NCBI GenBank assembly: GCA_026413945.1
Contig: JAOAJX010000004.1
Coordinates: 32,483 to 96,482, forward strand
Length of the DNA: 64,000 bases
From: Candidatus Iainarchaeum sp.
GTDB taxonomy: Archaea > Iainarchaeota > Iainarchaeia > Iainarchaeales > DTGL01
Direction of reading: 5' to 3'
A model generated the notes under the pieces. It was not told the DNA's origin. It did no database searches and saw only the letters and a list, made by a program, of their open reading frames with translations. Of this stretch, positions 1 to 19,583 are shown in pieces; the first letter of the stretch is position 1; each line of letters begins with the position of its first letter. Made by a program: the position numbers and the translations under genes.

Positions 1-134
1 AGCACCACTAGGATACGGATAAGCTACTTGAATGTAAAAAGGCCTTTTTCCCTTTTTTATCTCTGGCTCAAAAACCTTATTTGAAGACCAAAATTTTTGC
101 CATTTTTGCTCGATTCTTTTAAAATCCAAAAAGA

Positions 135-2813
135 TCACCTGTTTGTAGAAAAGTAAGCCCTTATCTTTTCACCGTCTGCTGTACCAATCGCCATACGGTC
201 ATTTCCACCGCCTTTGCCGTTCAATGTTGCCAATACTTCCTTAAGCAACTCTGTTGCTTTTTTGTTTGATTTCTCACCGCAAAAAACAACGATGTCTTTG
301 CCTGAGCCAAGAACAAGCGCAATATCAGGTCTCTTTGACATAACATAATTGCCTATCTCAATAAGTGTTTTCTTTTCTGTATCATCAATAAAAAGCTTAA
401 CAATAGGGCCTTTTTCTGAAATCAAAGACCTGCCAATTATAGAAGCGCTTCTCTCTGTCATCAAATCAACCTTTTTCCTAAGCTGCTTCCACTCAGAGAA
501 AAACCTTTCAACTGCTTTTGGAAGCTCATGTGGTTGTACAGATATCTTGGCTGCGGCTTCCTCAAGTATTGCTTCTTTTTCTTGAACAGTCTTTAGGGCT
601 TCGGGACCACAAACAAATGTAAGGCGCTCTATGCCGTCTTGAACACTTTCGCGCTTTATTATCTTAAAGAATCCGATCTCTGAAGTTCTCAATGCATGTG
701 TGCCCCCACATGCCTCAACATCAACGCCGGGTATTTCTACAATCCTAAGCTCTTTACCAGGGACATAACCACCTTGGTAAAGCGTAAAGCCATATTTTTG
801 CTCTGCCTTGTTTCTTGCCATGAAAAATGTTCTAACAGGAATGTTAGCAAGCACGAGTGCATTTACCATCTTCTCTAACTCTTTTATTTGCTCTTTAGTA
901 ATGCGTTTGTAGTGAGTCACATCTAAATGCGCTTTATCCACATCTTTTTGTGCACCTGCTTGCCAAATGTGCATTCCTAGAAGCTTTTTACAGCATGCAT
1001 TTAAAAGGTGGGTTGCTGTGTGGTGTCTCATAAGCTGCTTACGTCTTTCCATATCAATTGTAGCAGAAACAATATTTCCTATCCTAAACTTTTCTGGTTC
1101 TGAAACAGTATGTAGAGTTATTCCATTAATCTTCTCAACGCACACGACAGGCACTCCGCTTATTTTGCCCAAATCATGTGCTTGTCCACCTGAAGTGCCA
1201 TAAAAAGCAGTCTGATCCAAAATGAGTTTGTTACCTTCTTTTCCGATAACTTTTGCTTTAAAGTTACTAAGCATTGGTTCTTTATAATATAGTTCTTTTG
1301 TCTTAGGATACTCTCTAGAAAGCGCTGTTTTTTGTTCGCTTGAAATTGCTTTTTCGTTTTTCTTGGCAATAAGATAATAGAAGTTTTCTGGAATCTCTAT
1401 CTTCAGACCCTTCTTTGAGGCTTCTCTTTCAATTAGTTCTGGTGCAATGCCATTGCTTTCATATAGCTTTATCAGTTCTTTTTCAGTAATTATGTCACCC
1501 TTAGCGGCCTTATCAACAATGTTGGCAATTATTTGCCCTGCCTTTGCGCGCAGCTCCTTATTTTTTTGTTCTTCCTCTGAAATTATTTCAACAACTGAAC
1601 TGACACCTGCGCTCAATAAAGGATCAAGGCTTTTTAAAGCTATTGCATGTTTTTCCAAAAGACCTGGAACATCTAGCTTAAGATCATACTCTTCGTTGAA
1701 TGAAAAAACACGTCTCAACAAAATCCTTAGGTTATAGCCTCCACCCGAATTACTTGGAAGCATTCCATCAGTAATTGCATATAATAGTGCCTTAAGATGG
1801 TCAGCACAGGCATATAACGCTTGCACAGGCCTGATTGATTCGTCAAAATCTTTTTCTTCAAGCCCTATGCTCTTAAGTATCTGAGATCTTTTTTCCCTCA
1901 GATTACCCTCTTCTATATTTAGCGCACCGCCAAGCTTAGCATATAGAGCAAACTTCCTTGAGTCATATCTCAAGCCAGAGTCAGAAAACATCTTTTTTAG
2001 AACATCTTTGAAGACAACATCATAACTTGTTGGTGTTCCGTTTGTGTACCATGCCAGTCGCTCAAGGCCTGCGCCCATATCTATTACTTTTGTTTTAAGC
2101 TCTTCATAACCAGCGTTAGTCTCTCTAAATTGCATGAATACGCAATTACCAAGCTCAACTCCATTAGCAAGATATTCCATGCTTGGGCCGAAAGTGCCTC
2201 CACCTGCCCAAACATCCTCCATGAAAACAAGCTCCTGTTTTGGTACGCCTATAACCTTTGTAAGATAATTAAAGTCATGTTCCAAAGCTTCATTTTTCCA
2301 ATAGAAAAGGCCTGTTTTTTTGGAATTAAAAGCGTGTTGCCCAAACATTATAAAGGCTGAATAATGTTGACCTGTTGCACCAACATTCTGAAGATCATTG
2401 AAACGCAAGCATGGTTGTGGTACAACTAAGGGATTTGCCGGCGGCTCAAGTTCACCACTAACAACATATGGCTGAAAATCAATTATTGAGGCATTAGTAA
2501 AATACAAATCATCTCGCCATCGAGCAACCACGGGATAACGAGCAATGCTTTTATGACCATGTCTTACAAAGTAGCGTTCTATTGCACGCCATGTTTCGAC
2601 ATAACTATAACCTTTTGTTTTTTTTCCAATGAAGCCAAAACTTGAACAACTCGAATCAGCACATGATTTTCTCTCAGGGTTCAAACTCCAAAAAAATCGC
2701 CCGCATTTTTCACATTTTAGTCTAACGAAGCCCATCTCCTTGAGAAAAGGCACTTTGTAATGCTTTTCCCATTCTTTAGAAAATTGCTCGCGTAATTCTT
2801 TTTTATCAGCCAT
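135..2813 (-). CDS. alaS: Alanyl-tRNA synthetase (archaeal type)
   Basis: 892-aa ORF with the archaeal AlaRS catalytic N-terminus, editing domain and C-terminal DHHA1-like GGG motif; the stop codon maps to 135-137. Confidence 0.9.
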   Translation of the reverse strand: MADKKELREQFSKEWEKHYKVPFLKEMGFVRLKCEKCGRFFWSLNPERKSCADSSCSSFGFIGKKTKGYSYVETWRAIERYFVRHGHKSIARYPVVARWRDDLYFTNASIIDFQPYVVSGELEPPANPLVVPQPCLRFNDLQNVGATGQHYSAFIMFGQHAFNSKKTGLFYWKNEALEHDFNYLTKVIGVPKQELVFMEDVWAGGGTFGPSMEYLANGVELGNCVFMQFRETNAGYEELKTKVIDMGAGLERLAWYTNGTPTSYDVVFKDVLKKMFSDSGLRYDSRKFALYAKLGGALNIEEGNLREKRSQILKSIGLEEKDFDESIRPVQALYACADHLKALLYAITDGMLPSNSGGGYNLRILLRRVFSFNEEYDLKLDVPGLLEKHAIALKSLDPLLSAGVSSVVEIISEEEQKNKELRAKAGQIIANIVDKAAKGDIITEKELIKLYESNGIAPELIEREASKKGLKIEIPENFYYLIAKKNEKAISSEQKTALSREYPKTKELYYKEPMLSNFKAKVIGKEGNKLILDQTAFYGTSGGQAHDLGKISGVPVVCVEKINGITLHTVSEPEKFRIGNIVSATIDMERRKQLMRHHTATHLLNACCKKLLGMHIWQAGAQKDVDKAHLDVTHYKRITKEQIKELEKMVNALVLANIPVRTFFMARNKAEQKYGFTLYQGGYVPGKELRIVEIPGVDVEACGGTHALRTSEIGFFKIIKRESVQDGIERLTFVCGPEALKTVQEKEAILEEAAAKISVQPHELPKAVERFFSEWKQLRKKVDLMTERSASIIGRSLISEKGPIVKLFIDDTEKKTLIEIGNYVMSKRPDIALVLGSGKDIVVFCGEKSNKKATELLKEVLATLNGKGGGNDRMAIGTADGEKIRAYFSTNR

Positions 2814-2944
2814 AATTAGGAATATTTACCTGCAAAATAATAAAATACTTTTTCAGAACTGCTTTTTTAATCTTTGTTAAAGTGGTTCTGTTAACTTAAT
2901 GTTGATGAATTAAACATTAAAATTTTCATTTTATTACCCCCAAT

Positions 2945-3139
2945 TTAGTCAGAATTAACAGCTTGGAATTTGGTTGCTTTTTGTATCATACATTTCCAAT
3001 TCTCAACTTCGATATCCACTCCAGAGATTTTAGCTGGAGTATTACCATTAAGACTTTGATGAGGTCTTAAGAAGTTATAAAAGACAAACCAACCATCAAG
3101 AAATGTTTGGGCTGTTTCTTGTTTTTTCAATCCTCGCAT
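2945..3139 (-). pseudogene. IS transposase remnant (C-terminal tail of an rve/DDE integrase-core transposase)
   Basis: 64-aa ORF containing 'FYNFLRPHQSLNGNTPA', typical of the C-terminus of IS3/IS481-type DDE transposases; no upstream catalytic region is present, so it is a truncated fragment. Confidence 0.5.
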
Positions 3140-3166
3140 CGGTTTAAGCCTGTCCTTAAGTGTTCC

Positions 3167-3319
3167 ATGAAACGAATACTAGTAAGCCTTCCAGATGGGG
3201 CATGGAAATTTATCGAGAAAAAACTAAAGGGCAAACTCGGTGACAAAGAGTCAGAATTAGTTAGAAACATCGTTATCGCTTACTTGTCTGAAAAAGGCTA
3301 TTTTGAAGATGAGAAATAG
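3167..3319 (+). CDS. Ribbon-helix-helix (CopG-like) DNA-binding protein
   Basis: 'MKRILVSLPDGAWKFIEKKLKGKLGDKESELVRNIVIAYLSEKGY' matches the RHH pattern of a beta-strand followed by two helices and a 'SELVR' motif; internal ATG start at 3167 within ORF 3107..3319. Confidence 0.45.
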   Translation: MKRILVSLPDGAWKFIEKKLKGKLGDKESELVRNIVIAYLSEKGYFEDEK

Positions 3320-3497
3320 CATGGTTGACAAAGAGATCAAAGAGGTAAAAGAAGATATAGAAACTCTTGAGAACATGTTCTCTGCCTTAGTACACATTCT
3401 AGAAAAAAAGAAAATACTTTCTGATAAGGAACTTGACGAACAAATAAAGAGAAGAATTGATAAAGATAAGAAATTAAAGAAATTTGAAGATCTTTGA
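3303..3497 (+). CDS. Small charged coiled-coil protein (hypothetical)
   Basis: 64-aa K/E-rich ORF overlapping the RHH gene stop, which suggests an operon partner; no recognisable domain. Confidence 0.25.
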   Translation: MKMRNSMVDKEIKEVKEDIETLENMFSALVHILEKKKILSDKELDEQIKRRIDKDKKLKKFEDL

Positions 3498-3539
3498 TTA
3501 ACTAATTAGTTCTGAGAAGTTTGCGAAGCAAATTTCCCC

Positions 3540-3835
3540 CGAGCCCAATATTTCATGATTAAATTATATATTGGCGAGGGGCGACTGAACGAGCTCTGTA
3601 AGAAGCGAGTGAAGGAGTCAGAACGAGTGTTAGTAGACCGAGTGAGATTGAAGCGTTTAGCAGAATGTCTGAGCGAGGCAAGGAGCTTCGAAGAAGCGAC
3701 GAAGCGTTGCTGGCGATCATTTGGGGCGCCGTGGTTTGCTCCAGTTCAATATAGAAGCAAATCTCGTTTAACCATAGTTCAACGAAATAGCCAGCCTCGC
3801 CTTTTATAGAGACTAAATGAAAGCCACCTCTCACT
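3540..3835. other. G+C-rich non-coding island of unknown function (candidate structured RNA or element boundary)
   Basis: About 290 nt that is visibly GC-richer than its flanks. The 5' 'GGCGAGGGGCG' is complementary to the 3' 'GCCAGCCTCGCC', a CGAGTG motif recurs, and both strands show spurious long ORFs typical of GC-rich RNA genes. Confidence 0.2.
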
Positions 3836-3871
3836 AAAAAGTTAATAAATATTATTAGATTATCTTAACAT

Positions 3872-5671
3872 ATGAAAAAAGCATTTGTCTGGGATCCTGT
3901 GATGAGATCTTCAGCAATAAAATACGATCCTTGTATATTATTAAATGGAAAAATATGTAAAACTAAATGTGATAATTGCAAAATTACTCTTATCGCAGAT
4001 AGGTTTTTAGGTAAAGAATTCCAGCAAGAGATACTTGGAAAAATTGGTGGGAGCAAAGGAAGATACCCGTATGTTATTATCGCCGATAGTTTAGGTTGTA
4101 ATCTGCATTGTTGGTTCTGTTACGCATATAAATTTCTTACAAAAGAAAGTGCAGAAGCAAATAAATGCGACATAGCTTATGTTTCTCCTAAAGAACTTGC
4201 AGAACAATTTGGTTGCAAAATCAGAAAATTAGCAGACTTTCAAGAATTACTCAGAGTTGTTGAATCAAAGAATCTCAACGAACAGGTAAAAAAAGCGGCA
4301 ATTAAACATTTACAGATGAAATTACCTTTAATGAGGATCAGATTATCGGGTGGTGAACCAACATTCTCAACTAAAGATACATTGTTTGAACCTCAAGATG
4401 AAAATCTAATCAAATCTACAGTTATGTATTGGCTCTCTTTTTTTAAAGAATTGGATAAAATTATTGGTCTTTTAAAAAAAGATGGAAAATTAAATATTGC
4501 CAATAAAATGGATGTTAAAAATAAAGAGTGGAAAGGAGATTTACCGTTTCCTACATGTCTTGGAGAAAGAGAAGGAAGATTGAATATAAGATACGACACA
4601 AATGGTATCATATTTGGCAACAAAGAAATTACCAAGATGTTTATCGGTGGACTTTTTAAATTATTCAAACAAAATAAGCTAAATCATATATTCATAGAAT
4701 TTGATTATTCTTTTAAAGGTGCGACACCTGTTGAATACGAATGGTCTCAAAGGAGAGGTTTACCAGTTGACGCTTCAAAAATCTCTTTTGATTATAAATT
4801 AAAAGAACACCCACAAATTCCTGGTTATCTAAATATAATCAAAACTATTACTGAGCATTGCAAAAAAGATGTAGAGTTTAATAATTGTGCGGGTATTACT
4901 GTAGAAAGAGGTATAAACCACAACAAAAGTTTTAAAACATACCTGAATTGCAAAGAATCACTTAATTGGGAAAATTTTTCTAAAAAAAGTAGAATTCGAT
5001 TCTCAGTCGTAGATAATCCGATAGAAATGTTTAATTGGAGAAATTATACGCCTAAAAGCTGTTTTATTAAGAACGGTGCGAGCATCAAGGTAATATCAGG
5101 AGAAGCAGAATTTGATTTGAAAAATTGTCCGGATATGAACAAATTTTCTGAATTTGTCCAGAACCATCCAAATTGTTACTTTGTAATATACCCAGTTGAG
5201 ACCAAAGTTAATCTTCAAAAAATTACAAAAATAGGAAAAATAAAACTTGATTCTTCCCAAACGACATTAATAGACATGCAGTTTTCTGGTTGGGTCTTTT
5301 CTGGTACTAAAGAAAATTGGAAAATTGCATTGGAAAAAAGAAAGTGGGGTGTTAAGGAAAAAAACCGTTCTCTTTGGCAAAAAATAAAACCTGGGGATAT
5401 TGTATTATTTTATGTTACTACCCCTATAAGTCGAATTATGGGTTTTGGAAAAGTTAAAGAAACTTCTGAAGAAAATTCCCTTTTGTGGCCAGATGAAATA
5501 AAAGAGAATAATCTAAAATATCCACTAAGAATAATTTTTGAAGAGATGAAATGTATTGAAGATTGGGAAAATGGTGTAAAACCTTTTGGTTTAGAAATAA
5601 AACACGGCATAAATCAAGTTAACAATTATAAAACATTCGAAAAAATAGTCAATACTTTTAGAAATGAATAA
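3872..5671 (+). CDS. Radical SAM domain protein fused to a C-terminal EVE/PUA-like (modified-base reader) domain
   Basis: CxxxCxxC 'GCNLHCWFCY' at nt 4096-4122, the 'RIRLSGGEPTF' SAM-binding glycine motif, and 'NIRYDTNG'. The C-terminal approximately 130 aa (from ~5279) read 'W..WGV...R..W.KIKPGDIVLFYVT..SRIMGFGKV', an EVE-type signature. Confidence 0.7.
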   Translation: MKKAFVWDPVMRSSAIKYDPCILLNGKICKTKCDNCKITLIADRFLGKEFQQEILGKIGGSKGRYPYVIIADSLGCNLHCWFCYAYKFLTKESAEANKCDIAYVSPKELAEQFGCKIRKLADFQELLRVVESKNLNEQVKKAAIKHLQMKLPLMRIRLSGGEPTFSTKDTLFEPQDENLIKSTVMYWLSFFKELDKIIGLLKKDGKLNIANKMDVKNKEWKGDLPFPTCLGEREGRLNIRYDTNGIIFGNKEITKMFIGGLFKLFKQNKLNHIFIEFDYSFKGATPVEYEWSQRRGLPVDASKISFDYKLKEHPQIPGYLNIIKTITEHCKKDVEFNNCAGITVERGINHNKSFKTYLNCKESLNWENFSKKSRIRFSVVDNPIEMFNWRNYTPKSCFIKNGASIKVISGEAEFDLKNCPDMNKFSEFVQNHPNCYFVIYPVETKVNLQKITKIGKIKLDSSQTTLIDMQFSGWVFSGTKENWKIALEKRKWGVKEKNRSLWQKIKPGDIVLFYVTTPISRIMGFGKVKETSEENSLLWPDEIKENNLKYPLRIIFEEMKCIEDWENGVKPFGLEIKHGINQVNNYKTFEKIVNTFRNE

Positions 5672-5767
5672 ACTCATGGCGGCGGCTTCAATATAAATTA
5701 AATATAGCCAGCAATGTCTACTAACAACTATTAAGTGAAATAAATATTCGCTTTATAGTATGAAGAA

Positions 5768-5791
5768 GTATAAAAAGCGAGATTTTATATA
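5768..5791 (+). promoter_or_regulatory. Candidate archaeal TATA/BRE region upstream of the recombinase gene
   Basis: 'gtataaaaag' and 'ttttatata' A/T boxes lie 35-55 nt upstream of the ATG at 5824. Confidence 0.2.
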
Positions 5792-5795
5792 GTCC

Positions 5796-5817
5796 GTCTC
5801 AATAATGTCTCAATAAT
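5796..5817. repeat. Tandem direct repeat 2 x 11 nt (gtctcaataat) immediately upstream of the recombinase start
   Basis: Perfect duplication seen directly in the sequence at 5796-5806 and 5807-5817. Confidence 0.6.
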
Positions 5818-5823
5818 AAATTT

Positions 5824-6633
5824 ATGACGAACGAGAGCAAGATTTATTCTCCAGAAGAGAGGTATAAACTGATTGGCAAGCTGATTGAAGAAATAAAACT
5901 CAGAAGATATTCTTTTCAAACTGGAAAATCTTATATCTCTATTGCAAAAGACTTTCTGGCGTCAGGAAAGATACCAAGAGAATTTTTGCTGTCTTATACA
6001 AACAAAAGCAAATCTGCAATGAGGTTTGCCTATTTTGCTTTGAAGTTCTTTCACGAGAATATTCTGAATGCTAAATTCGGGGAAAAGTTGCCGCTTGCCA
6101 GAAAATCCATGAAATTGCCGTTAGTTTTAAGCAAAGAGGAGGTAATCAAAATGATTAACGCCACAAATAATTTGAAGCATAAGCTTGTTATTATGTTTCT
6201 CTATTATGCTGGCTTGCGTCTGAATGAGGTAAGAAATCTCAAATGGGAAGAAATTGATTTTGGCAGAGAGATAATACACTTAAAAACTGCAAAAGGAGAT
6301 AAGGAACGAATAGTATTTCTTAATAAAAAACTGACTTATATGCTGAAAATGTATGGAATTAATGAAGAAGGCTTGATTTTTGTTTCTCAAAAATTGGGAA
6401 AATACAACAAGAGGACAATCCAGCAAATTGTCAAATCCTCTTCCAAGAAAGCAGAGATAAAGAAGAAAATTACACCACATACGCTGCGGCACAGCTTTGC
6501 GAATCATCTATTAGAATCTGGCGCCGATATTCGATACATTCAACATCTTTTAGGCCATAAAGATTTGAAAACAACGCAAATCTACACTCACGTTGCGAAT
6601 AAGGACATAAAGAAACTTGCAAATCTGCTTTAG
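5824..6633 (+). CDS. Tyrosine site-specific recombinase (XerA/XerCD-like integrase family)
   Basis: C-terminal 'HTLRHSFANHLLESGADIRYIQHLLGHKDLKTTQIYTHV' carries the R..H..R/H..Y catalytic signature; N-terminal SAM-like core-binding domain. Confidence 0.85.
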   Translation: MTNESKIYSPEERYKLIGKLIEEIKLRRYSFQTGKSYISIAKDFLASGKIPREFLLSYTNKSKSAMRFAYFALKFFHENILNAKFGEKLPLARKSMKLPLVLSKEEVIKMINATNNLKHKLVIMFLYYAGLRLNEVRNLKWEEIDFGREIIHLKTAKGDKERIVFLNKKLTYMLKMYGINEEGLIFVSQKLGKYNKRTIQQIVKSSSKKAEIKKKITPHTLRHSFANHLLESGADIRYIQHLLGHKDLKTTQIYTHVANKDIKKLANLL

Positions 6634-6703
6634 AATTTTAGAAAACATTTACTAAAAACAAATATTGACCAACATTAAGTTAACAGAACCGTTAAAGTCT
6701 AGC

Positions 6704-7300
6704 TTAAGAAGCATATTTCAGTACTACTAAACAACACTCTTGTTCTCTAAGCAGCTCATCTTCGAGGCATTTGCACTTAAAGGAGCCACTATCCATCCAT
6801 TCAGGCTTTATATCCCGATAAAGTGTCTCTTCCAAGTATTTATAAAGGCCTGTAGCCGTTGCTCCGCAAATAACTGACACACTAACTTCTTTCTTATCTA
6901 AATTATATCTTATTAGAGAGCCATCTTCATATGCGCTCCAAGACTTTGAGGGCTTTTCCACCCTACCAAATTCTGTTTCGTCCATATAAACGCCTGGACT
7001 CAAGCATATTTGCTTAGACTCTATTCCAACATCAGAATTACCCAAAATTGCCTGTGTTGTAATAGTAATATAGCCATCCCTCTTTGAAAAAACTATCTTG
7101 CCAGATAATGGCGTTGACTTAGACTTGTGGGCATTGTTAAGCACTTCTGCGATTATTTTATTTGGCTCGGAAGTTGAGGGGGGTTTAATTAGACCTAAAA
7201 TATACAAAAGTATTGTCAATATGGCCAGAGCAATTATGGCCGATATAAGAAGTTGAAATGTTGAAAAGGATTGTCCCCTATAATTCATCACATCACCCAA
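6704..7300 (-). CDS. Archaeal type IV pilin-like protein with class III signal peptide
   Basis: N-terminal 'NYRG|QSFSTFQLLISAIIALAILTIL' is a prepilin peptidase (PibD/FlaK-type) cleavage motif followed by a hydrophobic helix. Confidence 0.55.
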   Translation of the reverse strand: MGDVMNYRGQSFSTFQLLISAIIALAILTILLYILGLIKPPSTSEPNKIIAEVLNNAHKSKSTPLSGKIVFSKRDGYITITTQAILGNSDVGIESKQICLSPGVYMDETEFGRVEKPSKSWSAYEDGSLIRYNLDKKEVSVSVICGATATGLYKYLEETLYRDIKPEWMDSGSFKCKCLEDELLREQECCLVVLKYAS

Positions 7301-7510
7301 AAATATTTAACAAAAATAAGTTTTTTCTTATATTTAAAGTTATCGTAATTAAATAAATTTTGGCTTTATCTTGCTTTTTCTTAACACCATAGACCAAAGC
7401 AAAAAACACCAACATTTAAAAATAAATCTTACAGCTATTTAATAGTAACTTAAATGATGAAACATTAGATTTGGATTAGAATACTAAAACAGCGCAATAA
7501 TGCTTTTTAG

Positions 7511-8248
7511 GTGTTAAAAGTGGGATTAAGGCCAGGGCATTGTTATTCAAGTATAAAGCACAGGCCATATACAAGGGTAGCCATAACTGTGCATGAAAAG
7601 AATTATATAGGCACTGTGCCGCCTGTTAGAATAAGGCAATTCAACATGGGAAACCCATCAATGCCTTATACTCACATAATTGATCTTATTGCTGACGACG
7701 CTGTGCAGATAAGAGACAACGCAATAGAAGCACTAAGGATCTCAATAAACAGATTTCTAATAAGGAATGTTGGCAAGGAAAACTATTTCATGCGCATAAG
7801 GGTCTTTCCTCATCAGATTTTAAGAGAGCACAAGCAAGCACAAGGTGCAGGCGCAGACAGGGTTTCACAAGGTATGAGTCATGCTTTTGGCAAACCAATA
7901 GGTCGCGCTATAAGAGTAAAAAAAGGCACAATTGTTTTGAGCATCCTTGCACTTCCGCAACATGTTAACCTAATTGAAAAAACCCTAGAGAAAAGGGCCA
8001 AGTCAAAGCTGCCTTGCAGCTTAAAAGTAAAAACACACACTGATTTGAAGTCGATAGGCACATTGCCGAGGAAAGCCATAATTGAGGAAAAGATTGAAGA
8101 GGCGAAGCCAGAAGAAGAAAAGGCAGCAGAGGAAAAAGCAGCAGAGGCAACAGAAAAAATTGAGGGCAAAGAAGATAGCAAGAAGGAAGATAAAGGAGAG
8201 GCAAAGAAAAGCGAAAAAACCTCGGAAAAAAAGCCAGAGAAAAAGTAG
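7511..8248 (+). CDS. rpl10e: Ribosomal protein L10e (uL16) with long K/E-rich C-terminal tail
   Basis: 'RPGHCYSSIKHRPYTRVA...' matches the L10e N-terminus; a roughly 60-aa low-complexity KE-rich extension is unusual. Confidence 0.8.
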   Translation: MLKVGLRPGHCYSSIKHRPYTRVAITVHEKNYIGTVPPVRIRQFNMGNPSMPYTHIIDLIADDAVQIRDNAIEALRISINRFLIRNVGKENYFMRIRVFPHQILREHKQAQGAGADRVSQGMSHAFGKPIGRAIRVKKGTIVLSILALPQHVNLIEKTLEKRAKSKLPCSLKVKTHTDLKSIGTLPRKAIIEEKIEEAKPEEEKAAEEKAAEATEKIEGKEDSKKEDKGEAKKSEKTSEKKPEKK

Positions 8249-8314
8249 CGAACAAGCCAACTAATTTAAAGATAAAAATAATGGCACAGCAATTAGAGAA
8301 TGCGAATTTAAAAG

Positions 8315-8385
8315 AGCGGGAGGAGGGAGTCGAACCCCCTTAATCCGGTCTGCAGCCGGATGCATGGCCGTTCTGCCACTCCCGC
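8315..8385 (-). tRNA. tRNA-Cys (GCA)
   Basis: Manual fold gives acceptor GCGGGAG/CTCCCGC, anticodon stem TCCGG/CCGGA with loop CTGCAGA, T-arm GGGGG-TTCGACT-CCCTC, and discriminator U73 as expected for Cys. Confidence 0.8.
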
Positions 8386-19436: not shown

Positions 19437-19583
19437 GCCGGGATGGCAGAGCGGCCCAATGCGCCAGCTTGGAGTTCTCCAAATTCTTTCTTTTTATAAA
19501 AGAAAGAAAATTTTTAATCACGAAGATAAGACCAATGAGCTGGTGTGCGCAAGCACTCGTGGGTTCAAATCCCACTCCCGGCG
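19437..19583 (+). tRNA. tRNA-Ser (GGA) with 63-nt intron (19475-19537) at canonical position 37/38
   Basis: Acceptor GCCGGGA/TCCCGGC, anticodon stem CCAGC/GCTGG with loop TTGGAG|intron|A, long variable arm GTGC-GCAA-GCAC, T-arm GTGGG-TTCAAAT-CCCAC, discriminator G; exon TTGGAG pairs with intron CTCCAA to form the BHB helix. Confidence 0.75.

Follow-up and report, generated by a model that had tools for sequence, protein, structure and literature searches.

A probable IS6-derived transposon carrying a recombinase module and mosaic cargo in a DPANN archaeon

Insertion sequences of the IS6 family, which includes archaeal clades, generate 8-bp direct repeats at their targets, and their 15–20-bp ends are marked by the motif cTGTt and by a GG tip (Varani et al. 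2021, PMC7986276). They transpose via cointegrates, for which no resolution module of their own has been described and which are left to host homologous recombination; typical members are 0.7–0.9 kb long and carry no cargo, the family review listing a single cargo-carrying member, ISDsp3 (PMC7986276). Here, a 64-kb stretch of AT-rich archaeal DNA (GC 0.38) from Candidatus Iainarchaeum, a member of the DPANN archaea, is compared with this and other described systems. This whole stretch is termed the window, and coordinates given without a locus number refer to it. Positions 2884–6690 very probably represent a 3,807-bp non-autonomous transposon, derived from the IS6 family and inserted between a pilin-like gene and alaS. 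Little is known of how the DPANN archaea, host-dependent organisms with tiny genomes, acquire accessory genes; the locus offers a clean recent insertion in which both ends and the target duplication can be seen and for which a sister genome has the empty site.

Other types of mobile or recombining systems also resemble parts of this element. The Tn402/class 1 integron is a transposon-borne integron with a decayed transposition module. The attC sites of integrons are imperfect palindromes with R''/L''...L'/R' boxes (RYYYAAC...GTTRRRY) that are active as folded single strands. The TnpI/IRS system of Tn4430 is a resolution module of the Tn3 family that uses a tyrosine recombinase, and single-recombinase Xer modules with an adjacent dif site, such as XerS/difSL and XerH/difH, represent a further paradigm. 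In archaeal integrons, of which only six are known, the integrases (IntIs) have the IntI-specific additional domain (Ghaly et al. 2022, PMC9668308).

Ends, empty site, and family of the element

The element is delimited by a pair of 27-nt inverted repeats (GGTTCTGTTAACTTAATGTTG...), identical at 25 of 27 positions, which a repeat search located at 2884–2910 on the forward strand (GGTTCTGTTAACTTAATGTTGATGAAT, proximal to a transposase remnant) and at 6664–6690 on the reverse strand (GGTTCTGTTAACTTAATGTTGGTCAAT, proximal to a tyrosine recombinase gene). These terminal inverted repeats (TIRs) account for the sole exact inverted 21-mer pair within the 64 kb, and 100 shuffles yielded no match. The outer tip of each TIR abuts a copy of GTTAAAGT, in direct orientation at 2876–2883 and 6691–6698, an 8/8 identity at fixed positions for which the probability by chance is ~2.4e-5. 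Such an arrangement, TIRs with a short direct repeat immediately outside them, is what insertion by a DDE transposon leaves behind. The initial annotation, made by reading the letters of the window, had proposed an integrated or decaying mobile element in the patch flanked by alaS on one side and by rpl10e and tRNA-Cys on the other; the TIRs and the target site duplication (TSD) were missed in that reading. A mobile element is upheld, with corrected boundaries and a corrected mechanism of entry.

The state of the site before insertion can be seen in related genomes. Loci with related sequence from genome and metagenome collections, designated by L-numbers, were compared with the window, and 80 alaS loci were compared for gene order. 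AlaS is 88% identical to that of L001 (JAWALG010000026.1), a Candidatus Iainarchaeum metagenome-assembled genome (MAG), and 91% identical, over a partial match, to that of L076, a second such MAG (sister MAGs JAWALG01 and JAWANJ01); the identity is ~50% in other MAGs labeled Iainarchaeum and ~48% in Micrarchaeota. In L001, the order is thiI, mre11, rpl10e, the pilin-like gene (85% amino acid identity), and alaS, with the end of the pilin-like gene 78 nt from the alaS start. L076 shares this pilin/alaS junction, and in L002 (AlaS 72% identical) rpl10e adjoins alaS. No match to the transposase tail, the RHH-like ORF, the small ORF, the radical SAM-EVE (rSAM-EVE) gene, or the recombinase gene, all described below, was found in any of the 80 alaS loci. 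The synteny of the closest relatives, contiguous from thiI to alaS and without the genes of the patch, thus supports the mobile reading.

When 2884–6698 is removed in silico, what remains is colinear with the empty sites in L001 and L076, and each of these has the target in a single, related version (ATTTGTAAC against ACTTTAAC). Because of these empty sites, the accessory segment is confined to the 3,807 bp of 2884–6690, and the pilin-like gene (6704–7300, reverse strand), which had been thought to close the patch, is a resident conserved beside alaS in the sister genome and lies outside the element. The placement of the patch between core genes is accurate, with alaS at 135–2813 (reverse strand) on one side and rpl10e at 7511–8248 (forward strand) and tRNA-Cys at 8314–8385 (reverse strand) on the other, the side on which an Mre11-like gene is also found. 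The insertion would have been into the short spacer that separates the pilin-like gene from alaS. The element is 70 nt away from the alaS start, on the upstream side, and the insertion has spared the conserved block there. At many sites (the window, L084, L086, L088, L089, and L093), TTTAAA or TTTATAAA occurs 12–20 nt outside the TIR tip, which suggests a preference for insertion into promoter-like AT-rich spacers.

The TIRs and the 8-bp target duplication show that the segment arrived through DDE (IS6-type) transposition and not through recombinase-mediated integration at an att site or at tRNA-Cys. The presence of a tyrosine recombinase gene and a nearby tRNA gene, together with matches of the recombinase to integrase families in PHROG, might otherwise have pointed to a provirus, a plasmid, or an island for which the recombinase had used an att site such as tRNA-Cys as the point of entry. 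The search for flanking direct repeats, however, revealed neither att-type repeats nor tRNA-Cys fragments on either side of the patch, and inverted repeats with an 8-bp duplication, as seen at the boundaries, are the signature of a DDE element. Moreover, the element-free sister genome shows conserved synteny of tRNA-Cys, rpl10e, and the pilin-like gene. The patch has no virus-like genes. A search of IMG/VR found no TIR and no relative of the rSAM-EVE protein, and the best match to the recombinase there is 33% identical. An origin by integration at att is accordingly very improbable.

Inverted repeats that bracket a recombinase gene, beside a gene for a surface protein, could also indicate an invertible 3.8-kb segment that the recombinase flips between the 27-nt repeats as a phase switch by the pilin-like gene. 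Several observations speak against such a switch, which is scarcely credible here: the repeats are IS6 ends that elsewhere adjoin IS6 transposase genes, singly or paired around unrelated cargo; they border directly on a target duplication, and relatives lack the entire segment; the conserved palindromic site by the recombinase gene is a different sequence; and the repeats lie downstream of the pilin stop codon, where inversion would change nothing obvious.

The assignment of the transposon to the IS6 family follows from its ends and from a remnant of its transposase gene. The ends begin GGTTCTGTT, with the GG tip and the cTGTt motif at both. A truncated DDE transposase tail had been recognized early at 2945–3139, and the 64-aa open reading frame (ORF) there, on the reverse strand, indeed matches Pfam rve_3 at 27.3 bits (cut-off 26.5). 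In-frame homology continues to ~3171, so that the remnant as a whole (2945–3171, reverse strand) comprises the last ~75 codons of an IS6 DDE transposase, with all DDE residues lost. It is 91% identical to residues 211–284 of the intact 285-aa transposase of L083, starting just past the catalytic glutamate, and its nucleotide homology to L083, L088, and L113 ends at 3171. The L083 transposase, composed of an N-terminal zinc finger and a DDE domain and encoded next to the 21-mer end, matches the NCBIfam IS6 model at 151 bits (cut-off 125). On sequence grounds, the family is clear and the transposase of the window is predicted to be nonfunctional; because only the last ~75 codons remain, the resident transposase gene is dead and the element is non-autonomous.

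The 21-mer end recurs in 14 metagenome contigs, with a sharp start at GGTTCTG and unrelated outer flanks. In L085 (7600–13189), the same TIR pair stands 5.6 kb apart around a full transposase gene (IS6 123 bits; DDE_Tnp_IS240 57.6 bits) and unrelated cargo that includes a DEDD-type 3'-5' exonuclease gene, an RHH-like gene, and several ORFs without family matches. L084 is a 1.15-kb deletion derivative in which both ends, a recombinase fragment, and the small ORF are kept. As these two loci illustrate, this IS6 subgroup habitually carries passengers inside one end pair, and the window element, with 3,807 bp and at least four passenger genes, is a cargo-carrying derivative (tIS/transposon) and not a simple insertion sequence. 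Kilobases of cargo inside a single end pair is the layout that the family review lists only once. A different arrangement of ends occurs in L082 (5803–5898) and L092 (8256–8351), where an IS6-type end, GGTTCTGTTAACTTAATG(C/T)TGATTG, is present in four head-to-tail copies with a 25-nt period.

The transposon may have been mobilized by an L083-like transposase supplied in trans, an autonomous relative with a 91%-identical tail being present in metagenomes, and would have transposed through cointegrates, as the IS6 family does. Mobilization in trans can only be inferred, because neither an intact transposase gene nor a second copy of the element is found in the window; a search of its 64 kb for further TIR, transposase, or recombinase copies returned none. 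This absence is one of several observations that weigh against an IS6-derived transposon. The inner part of the TIRs does not contain the 'caaa' motif of the family, and an element of 3.8 kb is far from the cargo-free 0.7–0.9 kb of typical IS6 members. The TIR pairs of L085 and L084 are not accompanied by clean 8-bp duplications, their flanks matching by eye at 5–6 of 8 positions (5 of 8 in L085). Elsewhere, the recombinase-proximal end has no detectable partner repeat within 4–7 kb, and this end could have a function unrelated to transposition.

The recombinase module and its presumed site

The gene at 5824–6633 (forward strand) was taken from the start to encode a tyrosine recombinase, and its 269-aa XerA-like product matches Phage_integrase at 147 bits and displays RKHRHY-type motifs that can be seen by eye in the translation. 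Its top NCBIfam model is that of archaeal XerA (recomb_XerA_Arch), at 196 bits with a cut-off of 220 bits, and its best solved relatives are the XerA structures 4A8E (131 bits) and 5HXY (129.5 bits), with the integron integrase IntI4 at 117.7 bits.

These affinities raise the alternative, which the initial annotation had left room for, that the gene is a native chromosomal xerA in an ordinary conserved neighborhood. In line with it, the best solved relatives are archaeal XerA proteins, and the recombinase gene stands singly among core genes in other genomes, in some hosts of which a housekeeping use of the Xer/dif type is possible. Several lines of evidence nevertheless leave this alternative with almost no likelihood. 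The gene of the window lies inside a TIR- and TSD-bounded insertion that is absent from the sister genomes, and its product falls below the 220-bit cut-off of the XerA model. More than 100 homologues have the same length of 269 aa and are 70–85% identical, and the names of the MAGs that encode them include Pacearchaeota, Bilamarchaeaceae, Nanoarchaeota, Woesearchaeota, Aenigmarchaeota, and Altiarchaeales. Across MAGs labeled as other phyla, where the phylum labels of the recombinase-bearing contigs rest on few NCBI names, the recombinase is 82–85% identical in amino acid sequence, compared with ~50% for AlaS. Furthermore, the GC content of the gene is held at 0.34–0.40 in host loci that range from 0.31 to 0.57, and a block of ~970 bp (5720–6690), including its noncoding DNA, is 76–80% identical in L095, L096, and L097. 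Because of this high cross-phylum identity, the conservation of noncoding flanks, and a GC content independent of the host, the module spreads horizontally and is not inherited, and the recombinase is not the host XerA. A module of recombinase and site whose DNA is 77–83% identical between the window and loci of MAGs labeled as different phyla (other DPANN phyla), with a composition that ignores the host, points to a shared vehicle of gene flow.

At the left edge of the module lies a putative recombination site, here called attX (5720–5758, forward strand), in which TAAC and a 4-nt gap are followed by a 12-7-12 palindrome, CTATTAAGTGAA ATAAATA TTCGCTTTATAG (5728–5758). Loci L095, L096, L097, L114, L115, and L117 all have this site ahead of the recombinase gene, with the consensus CTATTAAGCGAG ATAAATA TTCGCTTTATAG. 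At 5775–5791 (forward strand), a third half-site, AAGCGAG, abuts a TATA-like box, TTTTATATA, ~35 nt upstream of the ATG; AAGCGAGATTTTATA is kept in all six loci that have sequence upstream of the recombinase gene, and the box may serve as a promoter. The combination of the 12-7-12 palindrome with a third half-site at the promoter is conserved in six loci besides the window. The 2x11-nt repeat that had been listed among the mobile-element hallmarks is present in the 5' leader as a tandem duplication of GTCTCAATAAT (5796–5817, forward strand; 2.0 copies at 100% identity according to TRF), but its value as a hallmark is lost in the comparison with other loci, as the 11-mer is present once in L096 and not at all in L095 and L097, which identifies the repeat as an incidental local duplication private to the window.

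On the other side of the module, six of seven further loci (L084, L095, L096, L097, L114, and L117) have an IS6-type end (GGTTCTGTTAACTTATTGTAG), sometimes with a degraded tip, after the recombinase gene. The most extreme compositional mismatch seen is that of L115, in which a recombinase gene of GC 0.34 (1154–1963) is embedded in a locus of GC 0.57; attX is kept there and the IS6-type end is missing. In L117 (1–923), 113 nt precede the recombinase gene before the contig breaks off at attX, and many of the contigs that bear homologues are only ~1–1.2 kb long, which would fit assembly breaks in variable or repeated DNA next to the module. In L114 (GCA_053537055.1, JAIYGC010000008.1, a 171-kb contig, 1–7900), the module (84% amino acid identity) is accompanied by two hairpin units and a small-ORF cassette, both described below. 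L114 also encodes a protein with Sigma70_r2/r3 domains and NrdR, which look bacterial, and could reflect spread across domains.

The recombinase presumably acts at the palindrome upstream of its own gene. What it does there can be framed by analogy with other systems. Its most likely role, tentative as even that choice is, would be a site-specific recombination that resolves cointegrates, as TnpI/IRS does for Tn4430. This role is favored because IS6 elements are without a resolvase and because the layout of site plus gene mirrors that of TnpI/IRS, and if it is correct, the module fills a known gap in the IS6 transposition cycle. The main alternative is the exchange of cassettes, which is doubtful and is taken up in the next section; a portable module of the Xer/dif type is another.

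Passenger genes, hairpin units, and possible cassettes

Independently mobile pieces make up the cargo of the transposon, a mosaic that comprises an RHH-like gene, a small ORF with a hairpin unit, a GC-rich remnant, the rSAM-EVE gene, and the ~970-bp recombinase module. The ORF at 3872–5671 (forward strand; 3842–5671 with its own promoter region) bears out the earlier description of a radical SAM-EVE fusion. C76/C80/C83 (CX3CX2C) and G160-G161-E162 (GGE) are invariant in 15 homologues, and there are further invariant motifs; the Pfam EVE model matches at E=1.8e-5, and the Radical_SAM model yields a subthreshold 16.3 bits. The EVE domain has profile matches to MJECL36 and PH1033 at E ~1e-7 and Foldseek matches to 2P5D and 2HD9, and in an AlphaFold2 model of the whole protein (pLDDT 83.5) it resembles MJECL36, PH1033, and YTH, while the N-terminal domain is weakly QueE-like.

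The family has 19 members, from MAGs labeled Diapherotrites and Aenigmatarchaeota and from Archaeoglobus neptunius. In unrelated contexts (L105–L110), the gene is 75–77% identical at the nucleotide level from ~25 nt upstream of the ATG to the stop codon, and the A. neptunius homologue (L111) is 62% identical in amino acid sequence. That homologue adjoins (3326–7547) a split tyrosine integrase, 32% identical to the recombinase of the window, a PRiA4_ORF3 protein, and a ParE toxin, and is another island-like context for the gene. These distributions portray the rSAM-EVE gene as self-contained and horizontally moving. Its composition also sets it apart: among 51 long ORFs, it is the strongest outlier, with the lowest GC (z=-3.15) and a GC3 z of -3.3. 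The expectation that the patch would deviate in composition therefore holds for this gene and for the GC-rich island described below and fails for the recombinase and pilin-like genes, neither of which is an outlier among the 51.

The predicted enzyme probably reads or modifies altered bases in nucleic acids, and a role in defense is possible, PADLOC returning only a generic radical-SAM match (pVip, E=6e-4). A look-up of the exact protein sequence found no record, and the census of EVE domains in the literature does not mention the rSAM-EVE fusion. The proteins form an uncharacterized enzyme family that is a candidate for modified-base biology or defense.

Between the transposase remnant and the rSAM-EVE gene lie smaller pieces of cargo. 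An ORF at 3167–3319 (forward strand) encodes a 50-aa protein that had been called a CopG-like ribbon-helix-helix (RHH) protein. The conserved small-protein family to which it belongs comprises 109 cluster representatives at E<=1e-3; the ORF itself has no match in Pfam, NCBIfam, PHROG, or the PDB, one of 30 family members matches RHH_1, and in the AlphaFold2 model (pLDDT 68) an extended N-terminus is accompanied by two helices. The RHH identity is thus plausible from the model and the family, while the original assignment is without direct HMM support. The overlapping small ORF at 3303–3497 (forward strand), also noted at the outset, encodes a coiled-coil protein of 64 aa with a likely ATG at 3321, and it is the coding part of a cassette that combines a small ORF with a hairpin unit. 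The sequence at 3267–3502 is 86% identical at the nucleotide level to the cassette in L114 (777–1012), with a hairpin unit directly 3' of the stop codon in both, and a partial copy of the cassette is present in L084.

In the window, only the 5' half of this unit is found (3498–3535, forward strand), consisting of TTAAC-taattag-TTCTGAGAAG and the hairpin GTTTGCGAAGCAAAT. It is identical over 22 of 22 nt to a unit of L093 and aligns with the 5' halves of nine units from six loci; the conserved 3' half (CTCTTAATCGCTGTTA) is missing. A purine-rich noncoding island follows at 3536–3835 (forward strand). The GC-rich character earlier ascribed to 3540–3835 is real (GC 0.466, with 0.29–0.31 in the flanks), and the island resembles the tails that follow units in other loci, with motifs of the GAACGARGTGA type; related purine-rich motifs occur after units in L095, L096, L097, L109, and L114. 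The island was also considered as a known RNA gene, such as SRP RNA or RNase P, a candidate rejected in view of the absence of any Rfam match, at gathering thresholds or at E<=10, and of folds that are not unusually stable (z -1.5 and -0.6). Its ORFs (84 and 91 aa) have no family matches. The island can be explained only in part by such comparisons, its first ~40 nt being the half-unit and the remainder having no relatives.

Complete units, 84–140 nt long, are found upstream of the module in other loci. They share an architecture in which a 5-bp stem (TAACA/TGTTA) is followed by a 3-nt bulge on one side and by the 11-bp stem of a conserved L-box pair (GCGATTAAGAG/CTCTTAATCGC), with variable hairpins inside. 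Their ends have the form TAAC...GTTA, and five of nine end in GTTRRRY by our own count. The closing stem is 93.6% paired in the nine units, compared with 32–50% in slid controls, and two of its pairs show compensatory changes. Folded as single-stranded DNA (ssDNA), three of four units tested have z ~-4; the fourth, from L097, has z -1.35. The conserved blocks upstream of the recombinase gene were also considered as known RNAs or tRNAs, without success: ARAGORN found no tRNA genes in them in the loci scanned, the only Rfam hit at gathering threshold is an unrelated tRNA (L095, 7220–7394), and nothing near threshold was found at the unit of L096.

Where units share a locus with the recombinase gene, they all point the same way as attX, with unrelated genes interspersed. 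The order is attX, methyltransferase gene, unit, ORF108, unit in L095; attX, ORF298, unit in L096; attX, ORF169, unit, HAD gene, and later a further unit in L114; and attX, rSAM-EVE gene, half-unit, small ORF in the window. Arrays of one, two, or more modules of ORF plus unit therefore stand beside attX in L095, L096, L097, and L114, few loci having been compared. The near-identical sites of L095 and L096 have different genes between them, and the strain variants L097 and L099 part exactly at the 5' TAAC of a unit. In L109, an attX copy without a recombinase gene adjoins the rSAM-EVE gene, and a unit flanks the gene on its other side; in L112, a truncated transposase is fused to the 3' half of a unit.

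This organization invites an interpretation in which the recombinase exchanges cassettes, attX corresponding to attI and the units to attC, and in which an IS6 transposon carries the system, much as Tn402 carries class 1 integrons. Such a layer would be compatible with the transposon and would simply be added to it. The rSAM-EVE gene and the small ORF or RHH-like gene would then be cassettes between attX and units. The structure of the units, with their TAAC...GTTA ends, paired stem, and folding as ssDNA, favors an attC-like role, as do the arrays in a single orientation with different genes between conserved sites, the divergence of L097 and L099 at TAAC, the flanking sites in L109, and the truncation at a unit in L112.

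The recombinase itself is a difficulty for this interpretation. Its residues 52–175 and 194–261 align to residues 51–178 and 242–309 of IntI4 (2A3V), and the 18 residues between the two blocks compare with 63 in IntI4, so that ~45 are lacking where the IntI-specific domain lies, a domain that the known archaeal IntIs have (PMC9668308); the enzyme is closer to XerA. In addition, attX is a classical double-stranded palindromic core, unlike attI; the orientation of the ORFs in the would-be cassettes varies; the unit of the window is only a half; and the covariation is thin, the arms being conserved in sequence. The exchange of cassettes at the units is, in consequence, possible and somewhat unlikely. 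The same reservation applies to the wider proposal that an XerA-like recombinase, attX, and the units make up an integron-like system without an IntI-type integrase, carried on IS6 transposons across DPANN phyla and perhaps in bacteria. It also applies to the suggestion that the rSAM-EVE gene and the small ORF were captured as cassettes and that the transposase truncations arose by recombination at unit sites, for which the odds are put no higher.

Some features of the resident sequence lie apart from the transposon. The pilin-like gene has an N-terminus that resembles by eye an RG/Q class-III signal, and its HMM search gave no match. The product of rpl10e has a Lys/Glu-rich C-terminal extension of ~70 residues, unusual for uL16, that includes a 15-nt tandem repeat in its gene (8109–8147). 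A full-length Rfam tRNA match of 42.6 bits over 147 nt at 19437–19583 (forward strand), which ARAGORN does not call, is probably an intron-containing archaeal tRNA gene.

Relation to described systems

A search of the literature did not find the arrangement of a DPANN host, an IS6 element, and a tyrosine recombinase described. The likeness to IS6/IS26 elements includes the GG tip, cTGTt, the 8-bp duplication, and a transposase of the DDE_Tnp_IS240/IS6 type (PMC7986276). IS26 pseudo-compound transposons, however, hold their passengers between two copies of the insertion sequence, whereas the window element holds several inside one end pair. Its TIRs are also longer (21–27 nt) and without 'caaa', its transposase gene is cut to the last quarter, and its host is a DPANN archaeon.

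The likeness to Tn402 is one of design. The order of parts is the same in both, with an end, a recombinase gene pointing at that end, a site upstream of the gene, variable cargo, a truncated transposition gene, and the other end, and both are non-autonomous yet bounded by two ends and a target duplication. The differences lie in the components: the transposase is of the IS6 type and not TniA, the recombinase is XerA-like and without the IntI domain, and the attC-like units are putative.

With TnpI/IRS, the likeness is of form only, and comprises a presumed site right before the gene, an inverted-repeat core with an extra half-site at the promoter, and membership in a family that moves by cointegrates. 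The module differs in that it also occurs without a nearby transposase gene. Archaeal XerA/dif offers the closest solved structures and the same pairing of a single recombinase with a palindromic core. XerA acts at a dif site in the replication terminus, and within the 64 kb the one candidate for such a site is attX. The dif pattern is 11-6-11, and that of the window site is 12-7-12; unlike XerA, moreover, the recombinase of the window falls below the XerA cut-off, is horizontally spread across hosts to which it is compositionally foreign, and lies inside a transposon.

Archaeal integrons, finally, share with these loci variable ORFs separated by imperfect palindromes with AAC...GTT-type ends, next to a tyrosine recombinase gene, and MAGs labeled DPANN are among their hosts. 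They differ in the recombinase, which here has no IntI domain and belongs to a large, near-uniform group of 269-aa proteins. If the module does exchange cassettes at the units, it would represent a second, independent invention of the integron principle, built around an enzyme of the Xer type.

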